This document shows, one piece after another, positions 2,760 through 52,237 of a stretch of DNA of 64,000 bases; within the stretch, counting starts at the first letter, position 1, and each line of letters starts with the position of its first letter. The DNA is from a bacterium (lineage in GTDB: Bacteria > Patescibacteriota > Minisyncoccia > Phycocordibacterales > UBA2100). The stretch lies in contig JAUSHX010000028.1 of NCBI GenBank assembly GCA_030648265.1, forward strand, positions 249 through 64,248. Direction: 5' to 3'. The notes beneath the pieces are model-generated. The model worked only from the letters and a program-made list of their open reading frames with translations. It was not told where the DNA came from and did no database searches. Both the position numbers and the translations under genes were made by a program.

Positions 2760-3911
2760 ATGTCTTTCTCCCTCGGCGGTATTTCAAAATTCTTCAAGTC
2801 CTCATTCGGAGGAAGTTCCGAGGGGAGCATTATCGGCATTGACATCGGTGCGTCGTCCGCGAAAATTGTCCAGTTGCGCGCGTCCCGCGGGACGGCGATT
2901 CTTGAAACGTACGGAGAAATCGCTCTCGGGCCCTACGGAGGCCAGGCAATCGGCAAAGCGGTGAAACTGACTCCGGAAAAAATTGCCGAGGCGCTCAGCG
3001 ATCTCATGCGCGAGGCAAATGTGACCGCCCGTACTGGCGGGCTCTCCATACCCTTTTCTGCGAGTCTCGTGTCGGTGCTTGAAATGCCGAAAGTGGACAA
3101 AGATTCTCTAAAGAGAATGGTTCCGATAGAGGCGCGCAAATATATTCCGCTTCCCGTATCGGAAGTCACTCTTGATTGGTTCGTCATACCGCATGAGGAG
3201 CAGGGGGAGAGCGCGTTTGACCAGGTGGAGGCGCCCAAACCCGTTCACGCGAGAATGCAGGAAATCCTCCTCGTCGCCATACATAATGAAATCCTCCGGG
3301 ACTATCAGAAGATATCAGAGGCAACCGGGCTCAACGTGAGTTTCTACGAGATTGAGATTTTCAGCGCGACTCGTTCCTCAATGGGGCATGGCGCGGCGCC
3401 TGTCTTGGTTGTTGATTTGGGCGCGGCGACGACGAAGATGTATATTGTGGAGCGCGGGATTGTGCGCCTTACCCACCTGCTCACATCCGGCGGACAAAAC
3501 ATGACGGATACGCTGGCGCGCTCGCTCTCATGGGAATTTGAAAAAGCGGAGCGCGTGAAGAGGGAAATCGGACTTGTCAGTTCAACCGCGTACAGCACGG
3601 ATGAGAACGACCGGATAAAGACGGCATTGTTATCAACACTCTCCCGTGTGTTTTCTGAGATAGACCGAGTATTATTAAGCTACGGGCAGCGATATAACAA
3701 AAACGTGTCGAATGTCCTCTTGACTGGAGGAGGGGCATCGCTACCCGGCCTTGCGGAACATGCCAAGGGGTCGTTGCACGCGGAAGTTCTGATTGCGGAT
3801 CCTTTTTCGCGCTCGGAGGCGCCCGCATTTCTCCGAGATGTTCTGCGGCAGATTGGTCCGGGGTTTTCCGTTGCGGTGGGTCTTGCGTTGCGGAATTTGA
3901 AGCAAGGATAA
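2760..3911 (+). CDS. pilM: type IV pilus assembly protein PilM (actin-like ATPase fold)
   Basis: IGIDIGASSAKIVQL N-terminus, 383 aa, first gene of the pilus operon. Confidence 0.8.
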   Translation: MSFSLGGISKFFKSSFGGSSEGSIIGIDIGASSAKIVQLRASRGTAILETYGEIALGPYGGQAIGKAVKLTPEKIAEALSDLMREANVTARTGGLSIPFSASLVSVLEMPKVDKDSLKRMVPIEARKYIPLPVSEVTLDWFVIPHEEQGESAFDQVEAPKPVHARMQEILLVAIHNEILRDYQKISEATGLNVSFYEIEIFSATRSSMGHGAAPVLVVDLGAATTKMYIVERGIVRLTHLLTSGGQNMTDTLARSLSWEFEKAERVKREIGLVSSTAYSTDENDRIKTALLSTLSRVFSEIDRVLLSYGQRYNKNVSNVLLTGGGASLPGLAEHAKGSLHAEVLIADPFSRSEAPAFLRDVLRQIGPGFSVAVGLALRNLKQG

Positions 3912-12676: not shown

Positions 12677-13501
12677 ATGCTTGCTGTAATGTACGGTTTG
12701 TTCGGTCTTATAATCGGCAGTTTCGTAAATGTTGTTGTATTGCGCTCCGGAGTGCTTTCACTTTCCGGCAAAAGCGGATGTATGTCGTGCGGCGCAAAAA
12801 TCAAATGGTATGACCTTATTCCGGTTCTTTCTTGGCTTGCACTCCGCGGAAGATGCCGCGCGTGCGGAAGCCGCATTTCCGTGCAATATCCAGCGGTGGA
12901 ACTTGGAACGGGGGTTTCTTTCGCGCTTATCGGCGGGGCCTCTTTGCCGCCTCTCGCGACACTCCTCGGGTTGCTTATATGCTCGGTTCTTATCGCAATT
13001 GCAGTCTATGACCTCCGGCATACCATTATTCCGGATGCGTGGGTGTGGAGCTTCAATGCACTAGCTCTTATCTCTATCTTTCTTCCTGAAAGCAGTCTGA
13101 CTGCCTTTAGCAGTCAGACTGCTTTCGATACCATCGCAGGTCCCATTGTCGCCGCTCCGCTTTTCGTTCTATGGCTCGTGTCACGCGGAAAATGGATTGG
13201 ATTGGGTGATTCCAAACTCGCTCTGGGGATCGGCTGGCTTCTAGGTTCGCTTGCAGGCATTAAAGCGGTACTCTTGGCTTTCATTCTCGGAGCGATAATC
13301 GGGCTTGCGCTGATTTTCTTTTCATCTGCCTTGTGGAATAGGATTGTGAAGCAATTTATCCAGCACCACTCATGGCACATGAGTGGTGCTGGGATTACAA
13401 TGAAGAGTGAAATTCCATTCGGACCGTTTTTAATCGCGGCTTGTCTGTTCGTATGGATATCACAGATATATCACATCCCGATTCCTTTTTTATGGCAGTA
13501 A
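12677..13501 (+). CDS. pilD: prepilin peptidase / N-methyltransferase PilD (A24 family)
   Basis: N-terminal CxxC..CxxC domain (CMSCGAKI ... CRACGSRI). Catalytic Asp motifs AVYDL and GLGDSKL. Confidence 0.85.
   Translation: MLAVMYGLFGLIIGSFVNVVVLRSGVLSLSGKSGCMSCGAKIKWYDLIPVLSWLALRGRCRACGSRISVQYPAVELGTGVSFALIGGASLPPLATLLGLLICSVLIAIAVYDLRHTIIPDAWVWSFNALALISIFLPESSLTAFSSQTAFDTIAGPIVAAPLFVLWLVSRGKWIGLGDSKLALGIGWLLGSLAGIKAVLLAFILGAIIGLALIFFSSALWNRIVKQFIQHHSWHMSGAGITMKSEIPFGPFLIAACLFVWISQIYHIPIPFLWQ
13088..13126. repeat. 39-nt perfect inverted repeat inside the pilD CDS, in frame
   Basis: GAAAGCAGTCTGACTGC-CTTTA-GCAGTCAGACTGCTTTC encodes ESSLTAFSSQTAF in a loop between TM segments. Confidence 0.85.
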
Positions 13502-44009: not shown

Positions 44010-46391
44010 ATGCGCATGACGAATCAAAAAACGACAGTAAGAGTTGCAAGAAATGCGACTCGGGTTTCTATTTCTGCGAAAGCGGGAGCGGGCGGAGGAG
44101 CGGCTCTTCGCGTGTATAAAAAATATCTTCCTAACGTTCAAAAAAGAGACGGCCGTATCGTGCCGTTTGAATTTGACAAGGTGGTAAATGCTATTTACAA
44201 GGCGATGCTTGCGACGAATGAGGGCTCGGAAGACGAAGCAGTAGTGGTGGCGCACAAAGTTGCGGGCGAAATGATGCGGATTGCCAAAACGTATAAGAAC
44301 TTCCTGCCTACGGTTGAAGGATGCCAAGACGAAGTTGAACGCCAGCTCATTCTTGCCGACTACGCCGCCGCGGCGAAAGCATATATTCTCTATCGCGCGG
44401 AGAGAGCCAAGGTTCGCAAAGAGCAGGGAGCGGTGCCGGAGCATGTCCGTGCGCTCGCTGCAGAAAGCAAAAAGTATTTCAAGAATAATCCGCTCGGAGA
44501 ATTCGTGTATCTGCGTACGTACGCTCGTTGGATTGAAAGCGAGCAGAGGCGCGAGACGTGGATAGAGACAGTGGACAGATACGTCGGATTCATGAAAGAA
44601 AATCTCGGCGATAAACTCACGAAAAAAGAATATGCGGAAATCCGCGAGGCGATATTGAAACAGGAAGTCATGCCGTCAATGCGCGCGATGCAATTCGCCG
44701 GCGCTCCGGCGAAGAAGTGCAACACGTGTTTCTATAATTGTTCCTTCACTGCCCCTGTGAAATTGGAAGATTTCTCAGAAATAATGTATCTCTCAATGCA
44801 GGGATGTGGCGTGGGCTATGCAGTGGAAAGCCAGAATATTCAGCAGCTTCCGCAGATAGAAAAACAGACCGGAGAGAAGCTTGCGACCCACATTGTCGCC
44901 GACAACAAAGAGGGCTGGTGCGACTCGCTCACGCTCGGGCTCCGCACATGGTATTCGGGAAAGGACGTTGATTTTGATTTCTCTGTGATCCGTCCTGCGG
45001 GCTCGCGCCTGAAGACAATGGGCGGGAAAGCTTCCGGTCCGGAGCCGCTTCGCTCGTTGCTCGCATTTGCGCGCGAGCGGATATTAAGACGCCAAGGGCG
45101 ACGGCTTCGCAACATAGATGCGCACGACATCATTTGCAAAATCGGAGAGTGCGTAGTTGCCGGGGGCGTACGCAGAACCGCCATGATTTCTCTGTCGGAT
45201 TTGGATGACGTGGAGATTCGAGACGCTAAAAAAGGCCAGTTTTTCCTCACGGATCCGTACCGTTCAGTCGCCAACAACTCCGCCGTCTATGAGGTGAAGC
45301 CATCAAATGCGGAGCTCATGGATGAATGGGTGGCTCTGATGAAGAGCGGGACGGGAGAGCGCGGGATTTTCAATCGCGGCTCGCTTGAGAAAACGATGCC
45401 GGAACGCCGACAGAAGTTATTGCACAAAAAATACGGGAAACGTGGGAATTCTATCGGACAAGTCGGTACGAATCCTTGCGGAGAAATAATTCTGCAGTCC
45501 AAACAGTTCTGCAATCTATCGGAAGTTATTGCCCGCGCTGACGACACGGAAAAGACGCTTCTTCGCAAGGCGCGCCTCGCTACACTTCTCGGAACCTATC
45601 AGTCAACGCTCACAAATTTCAATTACATTTCCAAAGATTGGCAGAACAATTGTGAGGCGGAAAGGCTTCTCGGCGTATCAATCACGGGCCAGTGGGATTC
45701 TCCGGTGGTTCGCGATGCAAAAGTAATGCGCAAGATGCGTGCAGTTTCAATTAGGACGAATGCAACATACGCGAAGCGCTTCGGTATCAATGCTTCAACG
45801 TCTATCACGTGCGTGAAGCCTTCGGGTACTGTCTCGCAGACATTTAACTGCTCGTCGGGCATTCATCCGCGACACTCGCAGTACTACATTCGCCGTGTCC
45901 GCATCTCGGCGACCGATTCGCTCTACAAGATGATGCGTGACCAGGGCGTGCAAGCTTTCCCTGAAGTAGGGCAGAATGCGAATGAAGCGACGACGTTTGT
46001 TTTGGAATTTCCGGTTAAAGCCCCCAACGGTTCTCTCTACAAGAACGACCTAACGGCGATGGAACAGTTGGAGTATTGGAAAATGGTGAAATTGAATTTT
46101 ACCGAGCACAATCCCTCGGCAACGATTTCAGTAGGGGACGAGGAATGGGTTGCGGTCGTCGCGTGGATTTCCGACAACTGGGACATCATCGGCGGACTCT
46201 CATTCCTACCGCGCGAGAATCACGTGTATCGCCTCGCTCCGTACGAAACGATTGACAAGAAAACCTACGAAGCGCTCGCATCGAAATTCCCCGTCATTGA
46301 TTATTCAAAATTGATTATCTACGAGCGGACAGACGAGACCGAACAGGCGAAGGAATTGGCATGTGCCGGAGGGACGTGCGAGATTGTTTAG
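44010..46391 (+). CDS. nrdJ: adenosylcobalamin-dependent (class II) ribonucleotide reductase with ATP-cone
   Basis: ATP-cone VQKRDGRIVPFEFDKV, catalytic TNPCGEI, 793 aa. Confidence 0.8.
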   Translation: MRMTNQKTTVRVARNATRVSISAKAGAGGGAALRVYKKYLPNVQKRDGRIVPFEFDKVVNAIYKAMLATNEGSEDEAVVVAHKVAGEMMRIAKTYKNFLPTVEGCQDEVERQLILADYAAAAKAYILYRAERAKVRKEQGAVPEHVRALAAESKKYFKNNPLGEFVYLRTYARWIESEQRRETWIETVDRYVGFMKENLGDKLTKKEYAEIREAILKQEVMPSMRAMQFAGAPAKKCNTCFYNCSFTAPVKLEDFSEIMYLSMQGCGVGYAVESQNIQQLPQIEKQTGEKLATHIVADNKEGWCDSLTLGLRTWYSGKDVDFDFSVIRPAGSRLKTMGGKASGPEPLRSLLAFARERILRRQGRRLRNIDAHDIICKIGECVVAGGVRRTAMISLSDLDDVEIRDAKKGQFFLTDPYRSVANNSAVYEVKPSNAELMDEWVALMKSGTGERGIFNRGSLEKTMPERRQKLLHKKYGKRGNSIGQVGTNPCGEIILQSKQFCNLSEVIARADDTEKTLLRKARLATLLGTYQSTLTNFNYISKDWQNNCEAERLLGVSITGQWDSPVVRDAKVMRKMRAVSIRTNATYAKRFGINASTSITCVKPSGTVSQTFNCSSGIHPRHSQYYIRRVRISATDSLYKMMRDQGVQAFPEVGQNANEATTFVLEFPVKAPNGSLYKNDLTAMEQLEYWKMVKLNFTEHNPSATISVGDEEWVAVVAWISDNWDIIGGLSFLPRENHVYRLAPYETIDKKTYEALASKFPVIDYSKLIIYERTDETEQAKELACAGGTCEIV

Positions 46392-46586
46392 CATTTGCCC
46401 GCGCGTAAGCGCGGATGCAAATACTTAACCCGTTCACCATTTTCAGCGTGCGAACAGATTCAGAACGCCCACTGCCGATTGCGGTTTCTTAGACCAATAT
46501 TTATCAGCAAGATAGAAAGTGAGGAAATGGTGTCGGGTTTAAACAGGTTGTGGGGAATAGCTTCTAGCTGCTAGGAGGAAATACGA

Positions 46587-46634
46587 AAAGAGAAAGCCCG
46601 GTGAACCGAGTCTTTTTTCTCTCGATTCCTCCCG
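46587..46634. terminator. cassette terminator repeat, copy 1
   Basis: AAAGAGAAAGCCCGGTGAACCGAGTCTTTTTTCTCTCG. It is about 96 percent identical to 47165-47214. It lies directly 3' of the minus-strand ORF at 46640-46924. Confidence 0.6.
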
Positions 46635-46639
46635 GGCAG

Positions 46640-46924
46640 TCAGGGTAGAAGGTGCGAATAACCACCAACCCACCATGATGATCCGCGCATTGAATGTTCG
46701 CCGTCATCGATAATCAACAGAGTGTCACGACTCCGCAGTTTGCGGCCGCCGTCTTTTTCGCGGTCCATACGAGTACCATTCACGAATACCCGCAATGCCC
46801 TCGTCAAGCCAGTCCCCTTCTTTTTGAGGATCTCGTTAACCACTTTTCCCAATGTCCATGGAGCTTTCCGCTGGAAGCTGATGCTACCACCTTCTTGCGG
46901 CACGAACGTTGTGTTCTCTCTCAT
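46640..46924 (-). CDS. cassette ORF A, 94 aa, unknown function
   Basis: SD GGAGA lies 8 nt upstream of the ATG. It is flanked by the shared promoter/5'UTR and the shared terminator. Its tail ...SSWWVGG-YSHLLP is noted. Confidence 0.45.
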   Translation of the reverse strand: MRENTTFVPQEGGSISFQRKAPWTLGKVVNEILKKKGTGLTRALRVFVNGTRMDREKDGGRKLRSRDTLLIIDDGEHSMRGSSWWVGGYSHLLP

Positions 46925-46981
46925 GATTTTTATCTCCTGTGCGAAATAGCTCGACTAACCAGATGGTCTAGCCGTGTCGGC

Positions 46982-47010
46982 GCTATCTCAAAACGCAGAG
47001 AGAAAGTCAA
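46982..47010 (-). promoter_or_regulatory. cassette promoter A (TTGACT-17-GATAGC)
   Basis: The promoter plus ~60-nt 5'UTR is about 75 percent identical to the 47440-47468 region. Confidence 0.5.
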
Positions 47011-47104
47011 TCAAAAGAAAAAAGAGCCCTTTGGGGGCTCTTTTTTCATGTTCTGCGCAATAAGCCGGATTCTGTCGGGGACAGTCATTTATCTGGGATG
47101 ATTG
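47010..47104 (-). repeat. inverted duplicate of the rnpB 3' end (47061-47104) plus its terminator (47010-47057)
   Basis: Reverse complement CAATCATCCCAGATAAATGACTGTCCCCGACAGAATCCGGCTTA matches 47876-47919 with 1 mismatch. GCGCAGAACATGAAAAAAGAGCCCCCAAAGGGCTCTTTTTTCTTTT matches 48024-48069. Confidence 0.85.
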
Positions 47105-47109
47105 TAAAT

Positions 47110-47131
47110 TCTAGCAGTCTGACTGCTAAGA
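47110..47131. repeat. AGCAGTCTGACTGC palindrome copy
   Basis: TCTAGCAGTC-T-GACTGCTAAGA. Confidence 0.7.
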
Positions 47132-47164
47132 TTCCATTGTATCAAACCTTAGAAAGAAAAGGGA

Positions 47165-47214
47165 AAAAGAGAAAGCCCGGTGAACCGAGTCTTTTTTCTC
47201 TCGTTTCCTTCCGG
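47165..47214. terminator. cassette terminator repeat, copy 2
   Basis: See 46587-46634. It lies directly 3' of the minus-strand ORF at 47229-47390. Confidence 0.6.
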
Positions 47215-47228
47215 ACTTTTTTGCACCG

Positions 47229-47390
47229 TCATTTTTTCTTCGCAGGCGGACGCCGCCGCCGCGAAAAGATGCGGGACATCTCCCTCACCGTCTCGATTGA
47301 GGGGGGTGGAAGCGCTTTTGCATCTCGCATGGCCTCTTCCAGATCAACAGCATCAACGGCGGGTAACCGCCTTGGTTTGTTACGCTTCAT
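47229..47390 (-). CDS. cassette ORF B, 53 aa basic protein, unknown function
   Basis: MKRNKPRRLPAVDAVDLEEAMRDAK...RRRRPPAKKK. SD GAGGAG lies upstream. The ORF-track version (to 47468) runs into the promoter. Confidence 0.4.
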   Translation of the reverse strand: MKRNKPRRLPAVDAVDLEEAMRDAKALPPPSIETVREMSRIFSRRRRPPAKKK

Positions 47391-47439
47391 CGCAATCTCC
47401 TCAAATAACTCGACCAACCGATTGATTGACCGTGTCGGC

Positions 47440-47468
47440 AGTATCGCAAGTTGCAGAGAGAGAGTCAA
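47440..47468 (-). promoter_or_regulatory. cassette promoter B (TTGACT-17-GATACT)
   Basis: Paralogous to 46982-47010. Confidence 0.5.
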
Positions 47469-47538
47469 TCAAATGAAAAAGTACCGCAGCAGAACCCACG
47501 AGGTTTCACCTCGTGGGTTCTCAGACATCCAGACACAC

Positions 47539-47567
47539 TTGATATATTTGTCAACCTTTGATACACT
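47539..47567 (+). promoter_or_regulatory. candidate rnpB promoter (TTGATA-17-TACACT)
   Basis: The -10 hexamer ends 6 nt before the predicted P1 5' strand. Confidence 0.45.
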
Positions 47568-47573
47568 ACATAC

Positions 47574-47928
47574 CTGCGTTAGGCAGTCGCTGGTCCGCAA
47601 GGGCTAGAGGAAAGTCCGGACACGCCCACGTTTCGTAAGATATGTGGAGCACGGTAGCGGGTAACGCCCGCCGGGGTAATCCTAGGGATGCGAACAGAGA
47701 CGGTTTTTTGCGAGAGCAAAAAACCGCCCCGTGAAATCGCGAAAGCATATTTCACTGGGGCGAGATTGAGCAGTTAAAGGCTCAAGGTGCAACGGCAAAA
47801 ATCCTACCTGCGTGCAAGGTCGTATCAAATCGTGCCATCGGTACGGTTAGAAGAACCGCTTGAGGTGATTGGCAACAATCATCCCAGATAAATGACTGTC
47901 CTCGACAGAATCCGGCTTACAAATGCAG
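47574..47928 (+). ncRNA. rnpB: RNase P RNA (bacterial type A)
   Basis: GAGGAAAGTCCGGAC (P4 5' strand), GGTAACGCC, ACAGAATCCGGCTTA (P4 3' strand), P2 GGCAGTC/GACTGTC, P1 CTGCGTT/AAATGCAG. Ends accurate to within about 5 nt. Confidence 0.85.
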
Positions 47929-48035
47929 CGAAATGAGCGGAGCGAAAAAGCTTCGCTTTTTCGTTTCCGAATGAGAAAATTTGCACGAAGTTGGGCGCAG
48001 TGCAGCCGAGCGCAGCGAGTACTGCACAGAACATG

Positions 48036-48069
48036 AAAAAAGAGCCCCAAAAGAGCTCTTTTTTCTTTT
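48036..48069 (+). terminator. terminator downstream of rnpB
   Basis: AAAAAAGAGC-CCCAAAAGA-GCTCTTTTTT followed by CTTTT. Confidence 0.65.
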
Positions 48070-48160: not shown

Positions 48161-50524
48161 ATGGAAAACAGCATATCAAAGCTAGATCGGATTGCACAGT
48201 GGTGCATGGTGCTTCTCATCGGACTTCTTCCGATTTTCTTCATACCTATACTATGGATAACAACCGTACAAGTTAAAGCATTTCTTGTCGCGGTTCTTCT
48301 TATAATCGCGACGGTGACGTGGGCCATCGCGCGGTTCAAAGAGGGCAGCATAAGAGTGCCCAATAATTTAATTCTTGCGGCGGGACTCCTCATGCCGCTT
48401 GTGTACGCAATTTCGGTTGCGATATCAGGCTTGAGCCAGGTCTCTCTGGTCGGTACCGGAGTTGAACAGGACACCCTTGCGTTCACATGTATCTTGTATG
48501 CGGCCCTCGTTCTATCCGCTCTTATATTCTCCGGCCCGCCTGCGGAGGCCCCCGCCTACGCCGAAGCTTCGGCGGGCAGGTCGGCGCAAGCAGGCGCATC
48601 ACGCAAAAGCATTACGGCAATACGGGGTCTTTTTGTCGGCGGCTTTGCGCTCATCTTTCTTGAGATTGTTCATTTTGTGTTTCCAGGTTTGAGTTTGGGC
48701 GGCGTTCTTGCCGGACAAACAGGAAATGCGTTTGGCAACTGGAATGAATTTGCGATTTTGCTGGGACTTTTCGTTGTTCTTGGAATTGCCCTTAGGCATA
48801 CCGAGGTAGCCCAAGGAAAGTGGAAATACCTTCTTGACGCGGTAGCTCTGATATCCGCACTTCTTTTGATTATCGCGAATTTCTTTGATGTGTGGACGGC
48901 GGTAGGAATTGCAGGCCTTATCGCGCTTCTCGTGCAACATTTCGCATCGCGAGCGCAATCAGGAGATTCCGCCCCTCAACTGGGCACAAAACGTGTTTGG
49001 ATAACCCTTGTTATCATCGCACTTTTCTTTATGCTCTTTGGCGCTTTGGTAAACAACGTACTGTCTGCGCGAATACGTGTGGCGAATATAGAAGCGCGTC
49101 CCTCGCTCCAGGGAACGATTGCAATCGGGCAACAGGCTCTCACACAGCCGGCGTCTCTCTTCTTCGGCGTTGGTCCGAATACGTTCAGTCATGAGTGGGG
49201 ACTCTATAAACCAACGACCATAAATCAATCCGCCTATTGGAATACAGACTTTACCTCCGGAGTCGGAACCATTCCGACGTCGTTCGTAACGACCGGAATT
49301 TTCGGCATCATTGCATGGATTTTGTTCGCCATCGCGCTCGTATTGACTGTTATACGCGCGCTTGTGCGATATGGAAAAGGGGAACAGGGGAATCTCTATG
49401 CCTCCTCTTTTGGCATCGCTTCGGTTTTCTTGCTCTCATTCTACTTGCTCTATGTTCCAGGGCCCGCGCTAAGTACACTTGTATTTCTCTGTATAGGATT
49501 GCTCGTGGCGTTTTCTGCACAGGCGGGGTTCACCGGCACGCATAACGTTATTTTACGCGGGAACGGATGGAAGGGCATGGCTTCAGTAGCCGGGCTGGTG
49601 TTCTTTGCAGTTGTGACGGTGGTATCTTCCATAGGCATATCGCGCGTACTTTTGGCAGAAATGATTTTAAACCGTGGAGTTGTCACGTATAATAATACGC
49701 AGGACATAGGAGCCGCCACTGGTTATATCTCGTCCTCGCTCGCCGTATATCCATCAAATGCCAGAGCGCATCGTGTTGGAATTCAGCTCGGTCTTGCCCA
49801 GTTACAACAGTTGATAGCCAAAGCTGACCCGAAGGATGAAAAAGCACGCGCGGAATTGCAGGATGTTTTGAAACAGACCATCCAGCACGGCCTAGATGCG
49901 GTCGCAATAAACGGGACTGATTATCAGAATTGGCTTGAACTGGCCGGGCTTTATCAGCAACTTGCCGGTGTGAAGGTGGCTGGTGCGTTTGAAAATGCAC
50001 GCGCCGCCTACGAGCGTGCTCGCAAGGAAAATCCATTGAGTCCTCTGCCGCTCCTGCAATTGGCACAGCTTGAGGTTATTCAGGGCAACACCGATGTTGC
50101 ACTGCAGGATCTTGCTGCCGCAGTTCAGCTGAAACCCGACCTTGCCGCCGCCTATTACATGGCGTCGCAGATTTACGCCTCCAAGAAGGACTTTAAAAAT
50201 GCGATTCCCGCAGCCACGCAGGCGGCACAATATGGGCAGAATGATCCTTTGGGTTGGTACAACCTTGGGGCGATTTCCTATGCCGGAACTGATTACACAA
50301 CTGCCGCCGCTGCGGAAGAGCGGGCACTCACACTGAATTCGCAGTACGCCAACGCAATGTATATTCTTGGTCTCTCGTACTATGAACTTAAGCGTCCGGA
50401 CGATTCGTTAAAAGTATTTAACGCGCTTAACCAGCTTTCTCCCGGTCAGCAAGTGGTCGCGGATATTCTCGCGAACCTGAACGCAGGTAAACCGCCGCTC
50501 TCAACGACATCTGCGGGCAGATAG
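48161..50524 (+). CDS. polytopic membrane protein (O-antigen ligase/Wzy-like) with C-terminal TPR repeats
   Basis: More than 10 predicted TM segments, then TPR-like repeats (AAYYMASQIYASKKDFKNAI..., AMYILGLSYYELKRPDDSL). ATG at 48161 (MENSISK). Confidence 0.5.
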   Translation: MENSISKLDRIAQWCMVLLIGLLPIFFIPILWITTVQVKAFLVAVLLIIATVTWAIARFKEGSIRVPNNLILAAGLLMPLVYAISVAISGLSQVSLVGTGVEQDTLAFTCILYAALVLSALIFSGPPAEAPAYAEASAGRSAQAGASRKSITAIRGLFVGGFALIFLEIVHFVFPGLSLGGVLAGQTGNAFGNWNEFAILLGLFVVLGIALRHTEVAQGKWKYLLDAVALISALLLIIANFFDVWTAVGIAGLIALLVQHFASRAQSGDSAPQLGTKRVWITLVIIALFFMLFGALVNNVLSARIRVANIEARPSLQGTIAIGQQALTQPASLFFGVGPNTFSHEWGLYKPTTINQSAYWNTDFTSGVGTIPTSFVTTGIFGIIAWILFAIALVLTVIRALVRYGKGEQGNLYASSFGIASVFLLSFYLLYVPGPALSTLVFLCIGLLVAFSAQAGFTGTHNVILRGNGWKGMASVAGLVFFAVVTVVSSIGISRVLLAEMILNRGVVTYNNTQDIGAATGYISSSLAVYPSNARAHRVGIQLGLAQLQQLIAKADPKDEKARAELQDVLKQTIQHGLDAVAINGTDYQNWLELAGLYQQLAGVKVAGAFENARAAYERARKENPLSPLPLLQLAQLEVIQGNTDVALQDLAAAVQLKPDLAAAYYMASQIYASKKDFKNAIPAATQAAQYGQNDPLGWYNLGAISYAGTDYTTAAAAEERALTLNSQYANAMYILGLSYYELKRPDDSLKVFNALNQLSPGQQVVADILANLNAGKPPLSTTSAGR

Positions 50525-50533
50525 TGTGCGGGT

Positions 50534-52237
50534 ATGATGAATCGCGTACTACGACGGCTCCTCTCTTTTGAGGTGCGCGGAATTCAATCTGCCGTGTACG
50601 TGCTGGCCGCGTTTGCATTATTGTCCTCTCTTCTTGCGCTTTTTCGCGACCGGCTCTTGGCGGGTGAATTTGGAGCGGGTACCGAACTGGACCTCTATTA
50701 TGCGGCGTTTCGAATACCCGACTTCGTCTTTGTGGCATTGGGAGCACTTGTCTCGGTGTATGTTCTTATTCCGGAGCTTGCGCGCCGCGACACAAGTGCA
50801 CAAAGAAATTACATAGACACCGTGGTTTTAGGATTCTCGGCTCTCGCGATTTGCGCAGGCTCTGTCACGGCGCTTTTTGCACCGCGATTGCTGTCATATC
50901 TTTTTCCACAATTTGTTGAAGCAGGATTTCTGCCTGTCCTTGTTTCACTGACCCGCATAATGCTGCTTCAGCCCATTTTGCTTGGATTCTCCAACATCTT
51001 TGCCGCAATTACGCAGACAAAATACAGATACATGCTCTACGCGTCATCACCATTATTCTATAACTTCGGAATAATTCTTGGAATTGTTGTTTTATATCCC
51101 ATATGGGGCATGCCCGGCCTTGCATGGGGAGTTGTTATAGGTGCCTCACTTCATGCCGGCATACAAATTCCCTCAATTATAAGTGACGGATTTTTCAGGA
51201 AATTACCGCGCCTTGGAGATATCCGTGTGCTGTTTCGTACGGCGGCAGTGTCCGTGCCGCGCGCCCTCGCCTTGTCTATGAATCAGGTGACGTTCATCGG
51301 CCTTACCGCACTCGCAGGCACGCTCGCAGTCGGTTCAATATCCGTATTCATGTTTGCTTTTAATCTCTACAGCGTGCCTCTCGCTATAATCGGCGCATCG
51401 TACTCCGTCGCAGCGTTTCCGGTACTCGCACTTTCCCTGGCAAAAGGCAGGCAATCGGAATTTATAGAAAATATTGCAAATGCCGCACGGCACATATTTT
51501 TCTGGTCATTGCCGGCCACTGCTCTCATTATAGTATTGCGCGCGCATATCGTCCGGGTTGTTTTGGGAAGCGGCTCTTTTGACTGGACAGACACGCGCCT
51601 TACGGCCGCATCGCTCGCGGTGCTCTCGCTTGCGCTCGTCGGGCAGGGTCTCATGCTGCTCTTGGTGCGCGGATATTACGCCGCAGGGCGGACTTTTACG
51701 CCGTTTCTTGTGTCATGCGGCATTGCTTTGGGCACAATCGGATTGGGCGCAATTCTCATCCGCATTATGGAGAATGCGGCGACCCTTTCCTTCATTCAGG
51801 TGCTGTTGCGCGTGGAAGATATACAGGGAAGCAACATGCTCGCGCTTGCAATCGCCTACGCTCTCTCAACGCTTATAGGCACGGCGTTTCTGGCGGTTTA
51901 TTTTGAACTCCGTTTCAGGGGCTTTTTTACACGCATCGGAAGGTCTTTTGCAGAAGGAACGGTGGCGGCATTCACCGGAGGGGTATCTGCATACGCGACG
52001 CTTGCAATAATAGGCCCGCTTACGCTCTCCTCCACGTTAGCGTCCGTTTTAATCAAAGGATTTGTAGCGGGTGCGGCGGGAATTATAGTTGCGGGGCTCG
52101 TATATGCGTTTCTGGGAAACCGCGAATTTTTAGAGACAGTTGCGGAAATTCGCGGGAGGTTGTGGCGCGGCTTTATAAAGGAAGAGGGCGGTACGGAGAT
52201 TGTTGTGTCGGCGGAGGAAGCGGCGGAACTTAAGTAG
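50534..52237 (+). CDS. murJ: lipid II flippase MurJ (MviN family)
   Basis: FRDRLLAGEFGAGTELDLYYAAFRIPDF N-terminal pattern, 14 TM-type profile, 567 aa. Confidence 0.8.
   Translation: MMNRVLRRLLSFEVRGIQSAVYVLAAFALLSSLLALFRDRLLAGEFGAGTELDLYYAAFRIPDFVFVALGALVSVYVLIPELARRDTSAQRNYIDTVVLGFSALAICAGSVTALFAPRLLSYLFPQFVEAGFLPVLVSLTRIMLLQPILLGFSNIFAAITQTKYRYMLYASSPLFYNFGIILGIVVLYPIWGMPGLAWGVVIGASLHAGIQIPSIISDGFFRKLPRLGDIRVLFRTAAVSVPRALALSMNQVTFIGLTALAGTLAVGSISVFMFAFNLYSVPLAIIGASYSVAAFPVLALSLAKGRQSEFIENIANAARHIFFWSLPATALIIVLRAHIVRVVLGSGSFDWTDTRLTAASLAVLSLALVGQGLMLLLVRGYYAAGRTFTPFLVSCGIALGTIGLGAILIRIMENAATLSFIQVLLRVEDIQGSNMLALAIAYALSTLIGTAFLAVYFELRFRGFFTRIGRSFAEGTVAAFTGGVSAYATLAIIGPLTLSSTLASVLIKGFVAGAAGIIVAGLVYAFLGNREFLETVAEIRGRLWRGFIKEEGGTEIVVSAEEAAELK

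Follow-up and report, generated by a model that had tools for sequence, protein, structure and literature searches.

Genes and features at the rnpB locus

In a genome of Candidatus Kaiserbacteria, which belongs to the candidate phyla radiation (CPR), the RNase P RNA gene rnpB is accompanied by an inverted copy of its own 3′ end. We analyzed this locus in a stretch of 64,000 nt, called the window here, and compared it with related loci. On the left, the locus is anchored by nrdJ (44010–46391, plus strand), which encodes a class II ribonucleotide reductase with the Pfam domains ATP-cone, RNR_Alpha and Ribonuc_red_lgC. On the right, it is anchored by a gene for a TPR membrane protein (48161–50524, plus strand), recognized by Pfam TPR families and by synteny across loci, and murJ follows directly (50534–52237). 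Both anchors are conserved, and synteny comparison shows the gene order nrdJ, rnpB, TPR gene and murJ to be kept across related loci. Between nrdJ and rnpB lie two minus-strand cassettes, each with a small open reading frame (ORF): cassette 1 encodes a 94-residue protein (p94), and cassette 2 encodes a 53-residue protein (p53).

The functional rnpB occupies 47571–47935 on the plus strand. It matches Rfam RF00010 at full length with 113.6 bits (E = 5.7e-34) against a gathering score of 100, and it falls in the bacterial type A class. A promoter-like site, TTGATA-17-TACACT with TG, precedes it at 47539–47567 (plus). RNase P RNAs of CPR bacteria are diverged (Lui et al. 2021, PMC8172020), and in the literature searched, we found neither inversions of rnpB nor duplications of its 3′ end described, and no case of rnpB serving as an integration site.

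A repeat scan links the functional gene with a block on the opposite strand. Over 45 nt, 47061–47105 and 47875–47919 are complementary at 44 positions, and over 50 nt, 47013–47062 and the distal rnpB terminator at 48020–48069 (plus) are complementary at 46 positions (92%). The block comprises an orphan rnpB 3′ fragment (47061–47105, minus) with the P18 3′ strand, J18/2 and the P2 and P4 3′ strands, and an orphan terminator (47013–47060, minus) that abuts the cassette 1 promoter. The P1 3′ strand TTGCGCAG comes after the fragment on the minus strand at about 47053–47060, inside the terminator part. The orphan terminator has a perfect 13-bp hairpin and then a T run; relative to it, the stem of the distal terminator is slightly degraded. 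Scored as RNase P RNA, the orphan reaches only 17.6 bits in a fragment match to RF00010, and it is therefore a fragment, not a gene. At the junction of the orphan and cassette 2, a palindrome resembling repetitive extragenic palindromic (REP) sequences, AGCAGTCTGACTGCT, lies at 47113–47127.

An earlier note on this DNA, made from the sequence alone, had described the last 44 nt of the rnpB core as inverted at 47061–47104 and joined to an inverted rnpB terminator. Both parts of this description are borne out, with coordinates shifted by a few bases. The note had also placed an insert of ~105 nt between the two blocks of the functional copy; we find ~104 nt (47920–48023), present in the functional copy only, and the separating stretch is an insertion relative to both the orphan and the closest relatives.

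The orphan end in related genomes

Loci of relatives (n = 95, designated by L numbers) were gathered via NrdJ (80), via the TPR protein (11) and via the cassette terminator in metagenomes (4). The NrdJ-based set consists of the 80 loci kept of 144 related stretches in GTDB genomes, and these are annotated mostly as Kaiserbacteria/Paceibacterota or other Patescibacteria metagenome-assembled genomes (MAGs).

In L081, a small-ORF promoter is followed by the rnpB terminator and the rnpB 3′ end, and the sequence then runs on into a complete minus-strand rnpB. Window positions 46972–47105, which contain a promoter, a terminator and an rnpB 3′ end in this order, are colinear with L081 5379–5513 at 87% identity over 135 nt, and the orphan terminator is colinear with the genuine rnpB terminator of L081. 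The same minus-strand arrangement is present in L082, L087, L093 and L002. The minus-strand rnpB ends of these relatives confirm that the inverted block is a genuine rnpB 3′ end with its terminator. The window leaves the L081 alignment exactly at the P18 loop, where the REP-like palindrome begins.

Because the orphan sits where minus-strand sister genomes have their real rnpB end, it would be a relic of an ancestral minus-strand gene. The comparison of rnpB neighborhoods had been suggested in the earlier note as a check on its idea of an invertible segment, and it speaks against that idea by giving a relic. A second copy of the conserved rnpB 3′ block ACAGAAnCCGGCTTA is found in the window only, and in none of the ~75 other loci that contain at least part of rnpB.

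The orphan would be able to complete rnpB. Pairing of the P1 5′ strand yields −9.9 kcal/mol with the orphan sequence UUGCGCAG and −8.4 kcal/mol with the strand now in use, which supports the earlier claim that recombination across the repeat would rebuild an intact rnpB. Incidentally, a promoter-like TTAGCA-17-TACAAT lies at 47129–47101 on the minus strand, partly derived from the REP remnant. Its match is no better than the regional chance expectation, and the predicted product would be an ~80-nt RNA of orphan and terminator.

Strand changes of rnpB

Among the scored genomes, rnpB is on the minus strand in 34 and on the plus strand in 32. Fitch parsimony on a neighbor-joining tree of NrdJ gives at least eight strand changes. 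Both strands occur among genomes with at least 95% NrdJ identity, as L081 and L082 are minus while the plus strand is used in L083, L085 and the window. The plus strand also applies to L084 (contig JANLIP010000061), its state being inferred from the TPR gene; this contig belongs to the MAG that also contains L001 (contig JANLIP010000059), with an NrdJ 97% identical to that of the window. The relative closest by the TPR protein, L093, has rnpB on the minus strand and no cassette at all. The rnpB core of the window is 95% identical to that of minus-strand L082 and only 72–76% identical to those of L081, L083 and L084, so strand does not follow the rnpB sequence type.

In sister genomes with opposite rnpB strands, promoter, gene and terminator are inverted together at the same site, and the right flank CACAAATCCACA stays beside the TPR gene. 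Inverted repeats flanking rnpB that would explain such flips were found in none of ten relatives, including both members of flipped sister pairs.

Two other kinds of variation were observed at these loci. Large insertions of repeated modules inside rnpB (L082 5240–5860 and L002 10440–10580), for example gattttgtccaccgcaggtgg...caaaatcg, lengthen the gene up to about 700 nt. The TPR membrane protein of the window is only 37% identical to its counterparts in L002 and L003, though NrdJ is 88–90% identical, which suggests unusually fast evolution or exchange on the right side of the locus, too.

Origin of the orphan end

The inverted block at 47013–47105 is probably the scar of an rnpB strand change, not a programmed switch. 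Judged by alignment with the relatives, it is most likely what is left of an ancestral minus-strand rnpB, its final 45 nt and its terminator, in their original place beside the promoter of the p94 cassette.

We conceived the following course of events. The ancestor would have had nrdJ, a minus-strand small-ORF cassette, a terminator, a minus-strand rnpB and the TPR gene, an arrangement that is still present in L081, L082, L087 and L093. A plus-strand rnpB unit would then have been placed beside the old copy, together with a REP-bounded p53 cassette that has its counterpart in L085 and L088. For a time there would have been two rnpB copies, until the old one was deleted down to its 3′ end. We suggest that the orphan end may have survived because its hairpin terminator insulates the p94 promoter. 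Separately, the working rnpB would have gained a tail element of ~104 nt that is specific to rnpB 3′ ends. Here we infer the order of events, the mode of DNA joining and the reason for the persistence of the orphan.

Three observations favor a two-copy intermediate with later loss of the old copy. First, the left half of the locus, which contains the spacer, the cassette 1 terminator (T1), p94, its promoter (P1 of the cassette) and the orphan, matches minus-type genomes, and the spacer aligns with that of L082. Second, the right half, which contains the REP-like palindrome, the cassette 2 terminator (T2), p53, its promoter (P2 of the cassette), a palindrome and the plus-strand rnpB, matches L085. 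Third, a second, decayed rnpB copy exists in L088. At 690–790 of this locus, a promoter and ~35 nt of the rnpB 5′ end are joined to TTACGCAG, the P1 3′ strand, and the gene body is deleted. This ghost rnpB indicates that two-copy intermediates arise and decay. It is followed by a REP, a gene for a REP-associated tyrosine transposase (RAYT), another REP and then the p53 cassette.

A role of REP/RAYT elements in the rearrangement may be suspected from the position of the palindrome at the junction. The window has four REP-like GCAGTCWGACTGC sequences versus 0.07 expected, with palindromes at 1933–1945, 13092–13122 and 47114–47126, including one back-to-back pair. Palindromes of this type, single and paired, resemble known REP/RAYT systems, and in L002, L003 and L088 the locus itself includes a RAYT (IS200-like) gene enclosed by the same palindromes. 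The window differs in that no RAYT gene is present in its 64 kb. Incidentally, a RAYT-like gene separates rnpB from the TPR gene in about 15 loci of distant clades.

Relics of gene fragments and inverted duplications are known to remain at breakpoints of inversions or replacements. The orphan is similar to them as a short non-functional gene piece in the ancestral position and orientation, forming an inverted repeat with a relocated working copy. It differs from them in that the gene concerned is the essential RNase P RNA gene, that strand changes of this kind have occurred many times while the gene order was conserved, and that the relic keeps a perfect terminator abutting a live promoter.

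Some points weigh against the proposed origin. The two arms of the repeat (44/45 and 46/50) are more alike than the orphan is to minus-strand relatives (87%), which fits a recent duplication within the genome or gene conversion better than a relic combined with imported DNA. The similarity of the arms is not decisive, because the real rnpB 3′ end and terminator of L085 are also 95% identical to the orphan. Moreover, no genome with two complete rnpB copies is found among the loci examined. The flips between other sister genomes look clean, with no scars, although they may come about by a different, more precise route. Lastly, the NrdJ tree is a neighbor-joining tree of a single gene, and recombination could inflate the count of strand changes.

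The serious alternative, because of the similarity of the arms, is an inversion in one step. Here rnpB would have been inverted in place, with staggered breaks or template switching duplicating the 93-nt block of 3′ end and terminator in inverted orientation. The REP and the p53 cassette would have been inserted afterwards between the orphan and the rnpB promoter, and a second full copy would never have existed. This is a variant within the scar reading, so that the modest probability we give it is a share of what the scar reading holds as a whole. The position of the inner repeat boundary in the P18 hairpin loop agrees with it, but as there are about ten hairpin loops, chance alone could well place a boundary in one of them. 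The clean in-place inversions that separate sister genomes with the same right flank agree with it as well, but the other breakpoint has no inverted duplication, cassette 2 needs an extra insertion event, and decay of a second copy does occur at this locus, as in L088. We therefore rate the two-copy route somewhat above the one-step inversion.

Less likely readings: invertible segment, assembly chimera and integration site

The inverted repeats bound the segment 47106–47874 (45 nt at 98% and 50 nt at 92%), which the earlier note had regarded as an invertible-segment configuration. It seems improbable that these repeats are in active use now. If they were, RecA or an unlinked recombinase would flip the segment as a standing polymorphism, and the family's frequent strand changes would then be explained. 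The repeats are long enough for homologous recombination, either orientation gives an intact rnpB with a terminator, and at least eight strand changes are seen in the family.

On the other hand, the proteins scanned within about ±10 kb include no member of a recombinase family, a few ORFs of at least 130 aa lying outside the scan, in agreement with the earlier remark that no recombinase is in the vicinity. The scanned neighbors are housekeeping proteins (IlvD, IlvC, an ABC ATPase, a cation efflux protein, NrdJ, MurJ, LepA, HisRS and others). The rnpB promoter, the p53 promoter and the p53 terminator all lie inside the segment. Since both promoters are inside, a flip would swap only the rnpB 3′ trailer, with no obvious regulatory consequence. 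The repeat is seen in only one of the ~75 loci with at least part of rnpB, and the arms have already diverged by five mismatches and the ~104-nt insert.

Three contigs, L001, L086 and L088, end at or just after the cassette terminator. These contig ends suggest strain heterogeneity at this point, which agrees with an inverting segment, but strain-level variation in the cassette content of the source communities, which they also suggest, explains them equally well.

With inverted repeats flanking ~770 bp and a viable inversion product, the window resembles site-specific switches such as fimS, hin and shufflons. It differs from them in having no recombinase among the scanned neighbors, repeats that are not conserved, and promoters that lie inside with their own genes, so that nothing is switched on or off. 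The idea of a programmed invertible segment is thus not supported by the scan for recombinases nearby, by the other loci, which have no such repeat, or by the position of the promoters. The repeat is not a dedicated switch; at most, its sequence would permit rare RecA-type flipping, which would be tolerated because the orphan could complete rnpB and its terminator is perfect.

An assembly chimera is very unlikely. In such a case, a minus-type strain supplying nrdJ, the p94 cassette and the start of an rnpB would have been misjoined to a plus-type strain supplying the REP, the p53 cassette and rnpB. One metagenome, Ga0209211, does hold three different versions of the locus, and close counterparts exist for each half of the window, L081 and L082 for the left one and L085 and L088 for the right one. 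However, mismatches and the missing tail set the orphan apart from the working copy, so that it cannot be a fold-back of the same reads, and the junction 47105/47106 has no shared sequence to cause a false join. Shared k-mers would presumably have led an assembler into the rnpB body, not to the REP at 47106. In addition, synteny is normal on both sides of the 64.9-kb contig.

Lastly, the 3′ ends of tRNA and tmRNA genes serve as integration sites of mobile elements. It is far-fetched to read the two copies likewise as left and right attachment sites of an element integrated at the end of rnpB. In favor of this reading, integration classically leaves behind a duplicated 3′ end by which the gene is restored, and the duplicated RNA-gene end of the window could complete the gene. 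Small elements found specifically at rnpB 3′ ends, with copies of the P1 3′ strand on either side as in the tail element of the window, also occur in many lineages. However, the long repeats are inverted and not direct, no integrase lies between or near them, the DNA between them includes the rnpB body itself, and the rnpB elements are only 70–105 nt long. A scan of viral contigs for the cassette terminator found nothing.

Small-ORF cassettes

Cassette 1 has its promoter, TTGACT-17-GATAGC, and 5′ untranslated region (UTR) at 46925–47014, p94 at 46640–46924 with an AGGAGA ribosome-binding site, and T1 at 46586–46635, all on the minus strand. Cassette 2 has its promoter, TTGACT-17-GATACT, and 5′ UTR at 47391–47472, supported by the repeat and by a promoter call, p53 at 47229–47390, and T2 at 47165–47214, again on the minus strand. 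The ORF of p53, a small basic protein, starts from the second ATG of a 79-aa frame. The two terminators are direct repeats with 96% identity, and the promoters with the start of the 5′ UTR are direct repeats with 84% identity (46972–47022 versus 47430–47480). The terminator and promoter patterns each have exactly two copies in 64 kb and none in 100 shuffles. The earlier description of two minus-strand cassettes with a common promoter, leader and terminator is consequently sound, as is its statement that they encode unrelated proteins, for both ORFs are present and have no similarity to each other. A perfect 14-bp palindromic hairpin (47491–47521) lies between the divergent promoters of cassette 2 and rnpB; L085 has an unrelated palindrome at the matching position.

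The shared promoter form is TTGACT, a CT-rich 17-nt spacer and TGnGATAnT. Cassettes of other loci have the same frame of promoter, leader and terminator, as aligned for L081 and L085 (the cassette 1 promoter aligns with the promoters of both) and as read from the promoter for L003 and L087. L002 has a diverged version of promoter and terminator. L088 shares the terminator only, its contig ending inside the cassette, and the metagenome locus L086 has only the terminator in common with the window. A second frame type (TTGACA...AAATTAGGCATAAT) is present in L082, L084 and L088, and L083 combines the terminator type of this second frame with a different promoter.

T1-related sequence lies 3′ of nrdJ in L003 (near-identical), L081 and L002, and matches of 90–98% are present in L085, L086, L087 and L088. 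These last four contigs were all obtained from the metagenome scan for the cassette terminator, and L085, L087 and L088 reach nrdJ and represent the same locus. In L085, a plus-strand rnpB is preceded by a single cassette, and cassette 2 as a whole matches it with 82% identity over 318 nt. Compared with L081, the cassette flanks in the window are 85–87% identical, and the ORFs do not align. The two cassettes are instances of a lineage-specific frame of promoter, ribosome-binding site and terminator whose small genes vary between genomes. As to framing at other sites, which the earlier note had raised, other copies are absent elsewhere in the 64 kb and from the viral-contig scan, and the frame recurs with other ORFs in relatives at this same locus.

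Two ideas on the cassettes were dropped. The shared 5′ UTR folds no better than shuffled sequences in two of three cases (z = −2.4, −0.07 and +0.15), so that a structured leader is not retained. Integron-type cassettes were rejected by inspection, as no integrase is present and both cassettes have promoters of their own. Incidentally, L085 has an insertion sequence at about 650–1694, between the cassette promoter and the rnpB promoter, with terminal inverted repeats GGCTTAATGGTA and an 8-bp target duplication TTCATTTG; its ORF has no Pfam match.

p94 has one homologue, at the orthologous position of L082, with 26% identity and a pairwise E of 5e-9. It has no Pfam or PHROGs match and no match among 5.8 billion proteins, and one marginal match (E = 9e-4) among 1.84 billion representatives. 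With other cassette ORFs, it shares a weak N-terminal pattern. A phage origin of p94 was rejected, since it has neither a PHROG match nor a relative in viral contigs.

The earlier note had compared the end of p94 with the Gly-Gly tails of beta-grasp proteins. This comparison does not hold for the tail, in which GG is followed by six residues: the only homologue ends in ...SWRIQAA without GG, and no E1-like or JAMM family partner was found among the scanned neighbors. As for the fold, a single-sequence AlphaFold2 (AF2) model of low confidence (pLDDT 60.5) does resemble beta-grasp proteins, as the top Foldseek matches in PDB are all of this type (ThiS, ubiquitin and SUMO), but these matches are not significant (E ≥ 0.16, TM 0.44–0.65), and Pfam gives none.

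p53 is a real gene under purifying selection, because codons 1–31 show eight synonymous and one non-synonymous differences from the L085 homologue. One homologue cluster was found among the 5.8 billion proteins. The AF2 model predicts two helices with a pLDDT of 82, and a fold search with it gave no match.

The rnpB 3′ tail element

The tail element of the working rnpB (47920–48023, plus) contains its own P1 3′ strand AAATGCAG, a terminator-like hairpin at 47935–47958 and GAGCGNAGCGA motifs, and directly after its end comes another copy of the P1 3′ strand, CTGCACAG. It is not present in the orphan, L081–L085 or L093. It does occur after rnpB in L089–L092 and in many other lineages (L013, L015, L017, L024, L026, L028, L033, L038, L039, L042 and L059). 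The copies are 70–105 nt in size, each with a hairpin of the type GAGCGRAGCGAAAAAGCTYCGCTTTTTCG, and each is bracketed by 7–9-nt direct repeats of the P1 3′ strand, for example taggtgcag on both sides in L026, and aaatgcag and ctgcacag in the window. L028 has two tail elements in tandem. In the 95 loci, the hairpin motif is found only beside rnpB 3′ ends, and in the window it occurs once. The tail element may be a tiny insertion element with a specific target site, or else a modular extension of the 3′ end.

Neighboring sequences

Exact-sequence look-ups returned no record for p94 or NrdJ of the window, and a single record for its TPR protein, which is the contig of the window itself. Directly 3′ of nrdJ, several lineages have a long conserved hairpin with 30–34-nt arms around ACTCCGAAAAG. 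It lies at 3902–4024 in L024, 8383–8503 in L025, 8305–8419 in L028 and about 2030–2180 in L085. The distance between the arms is 55 nt in the first three and, as read from the sequence, roughly 90 nt in L085.

Implications

The interval between nrdJ and rnpB in Kaiserbacteria is a small hypervariable spot. It contains swappable small genes under shared expression signals, REP/RAYT elements, an insertion sequence and an element that is found only at rnpB 3′ ends.

There is a slim chance that rnpB is part of an actively recombining module in these CPR bacteria. This could take either of two forms. Repeats of the 3′ end could be created repeatedly and used to flip the gene, or a REP-bounded module with its own rnpB and small-ORF cassettes could move between genomes and replace the resident copy. 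If so, an essential ribozyme gene would be the anchor and the target for mobile DNA, and this would also explain the strand changes, at least eight in number, and the tail elements specific to rnpB 3′ ends.

Read as a scar, the one-off repeat gives a dated snapshot of an essential non-coding RNA gene changing strand without being lost. For the annotation of CPR genomes, rnpB fragments and 3′ extensions are to be expected. In this group of bacteria, the strand of rnpB is an unstable character.

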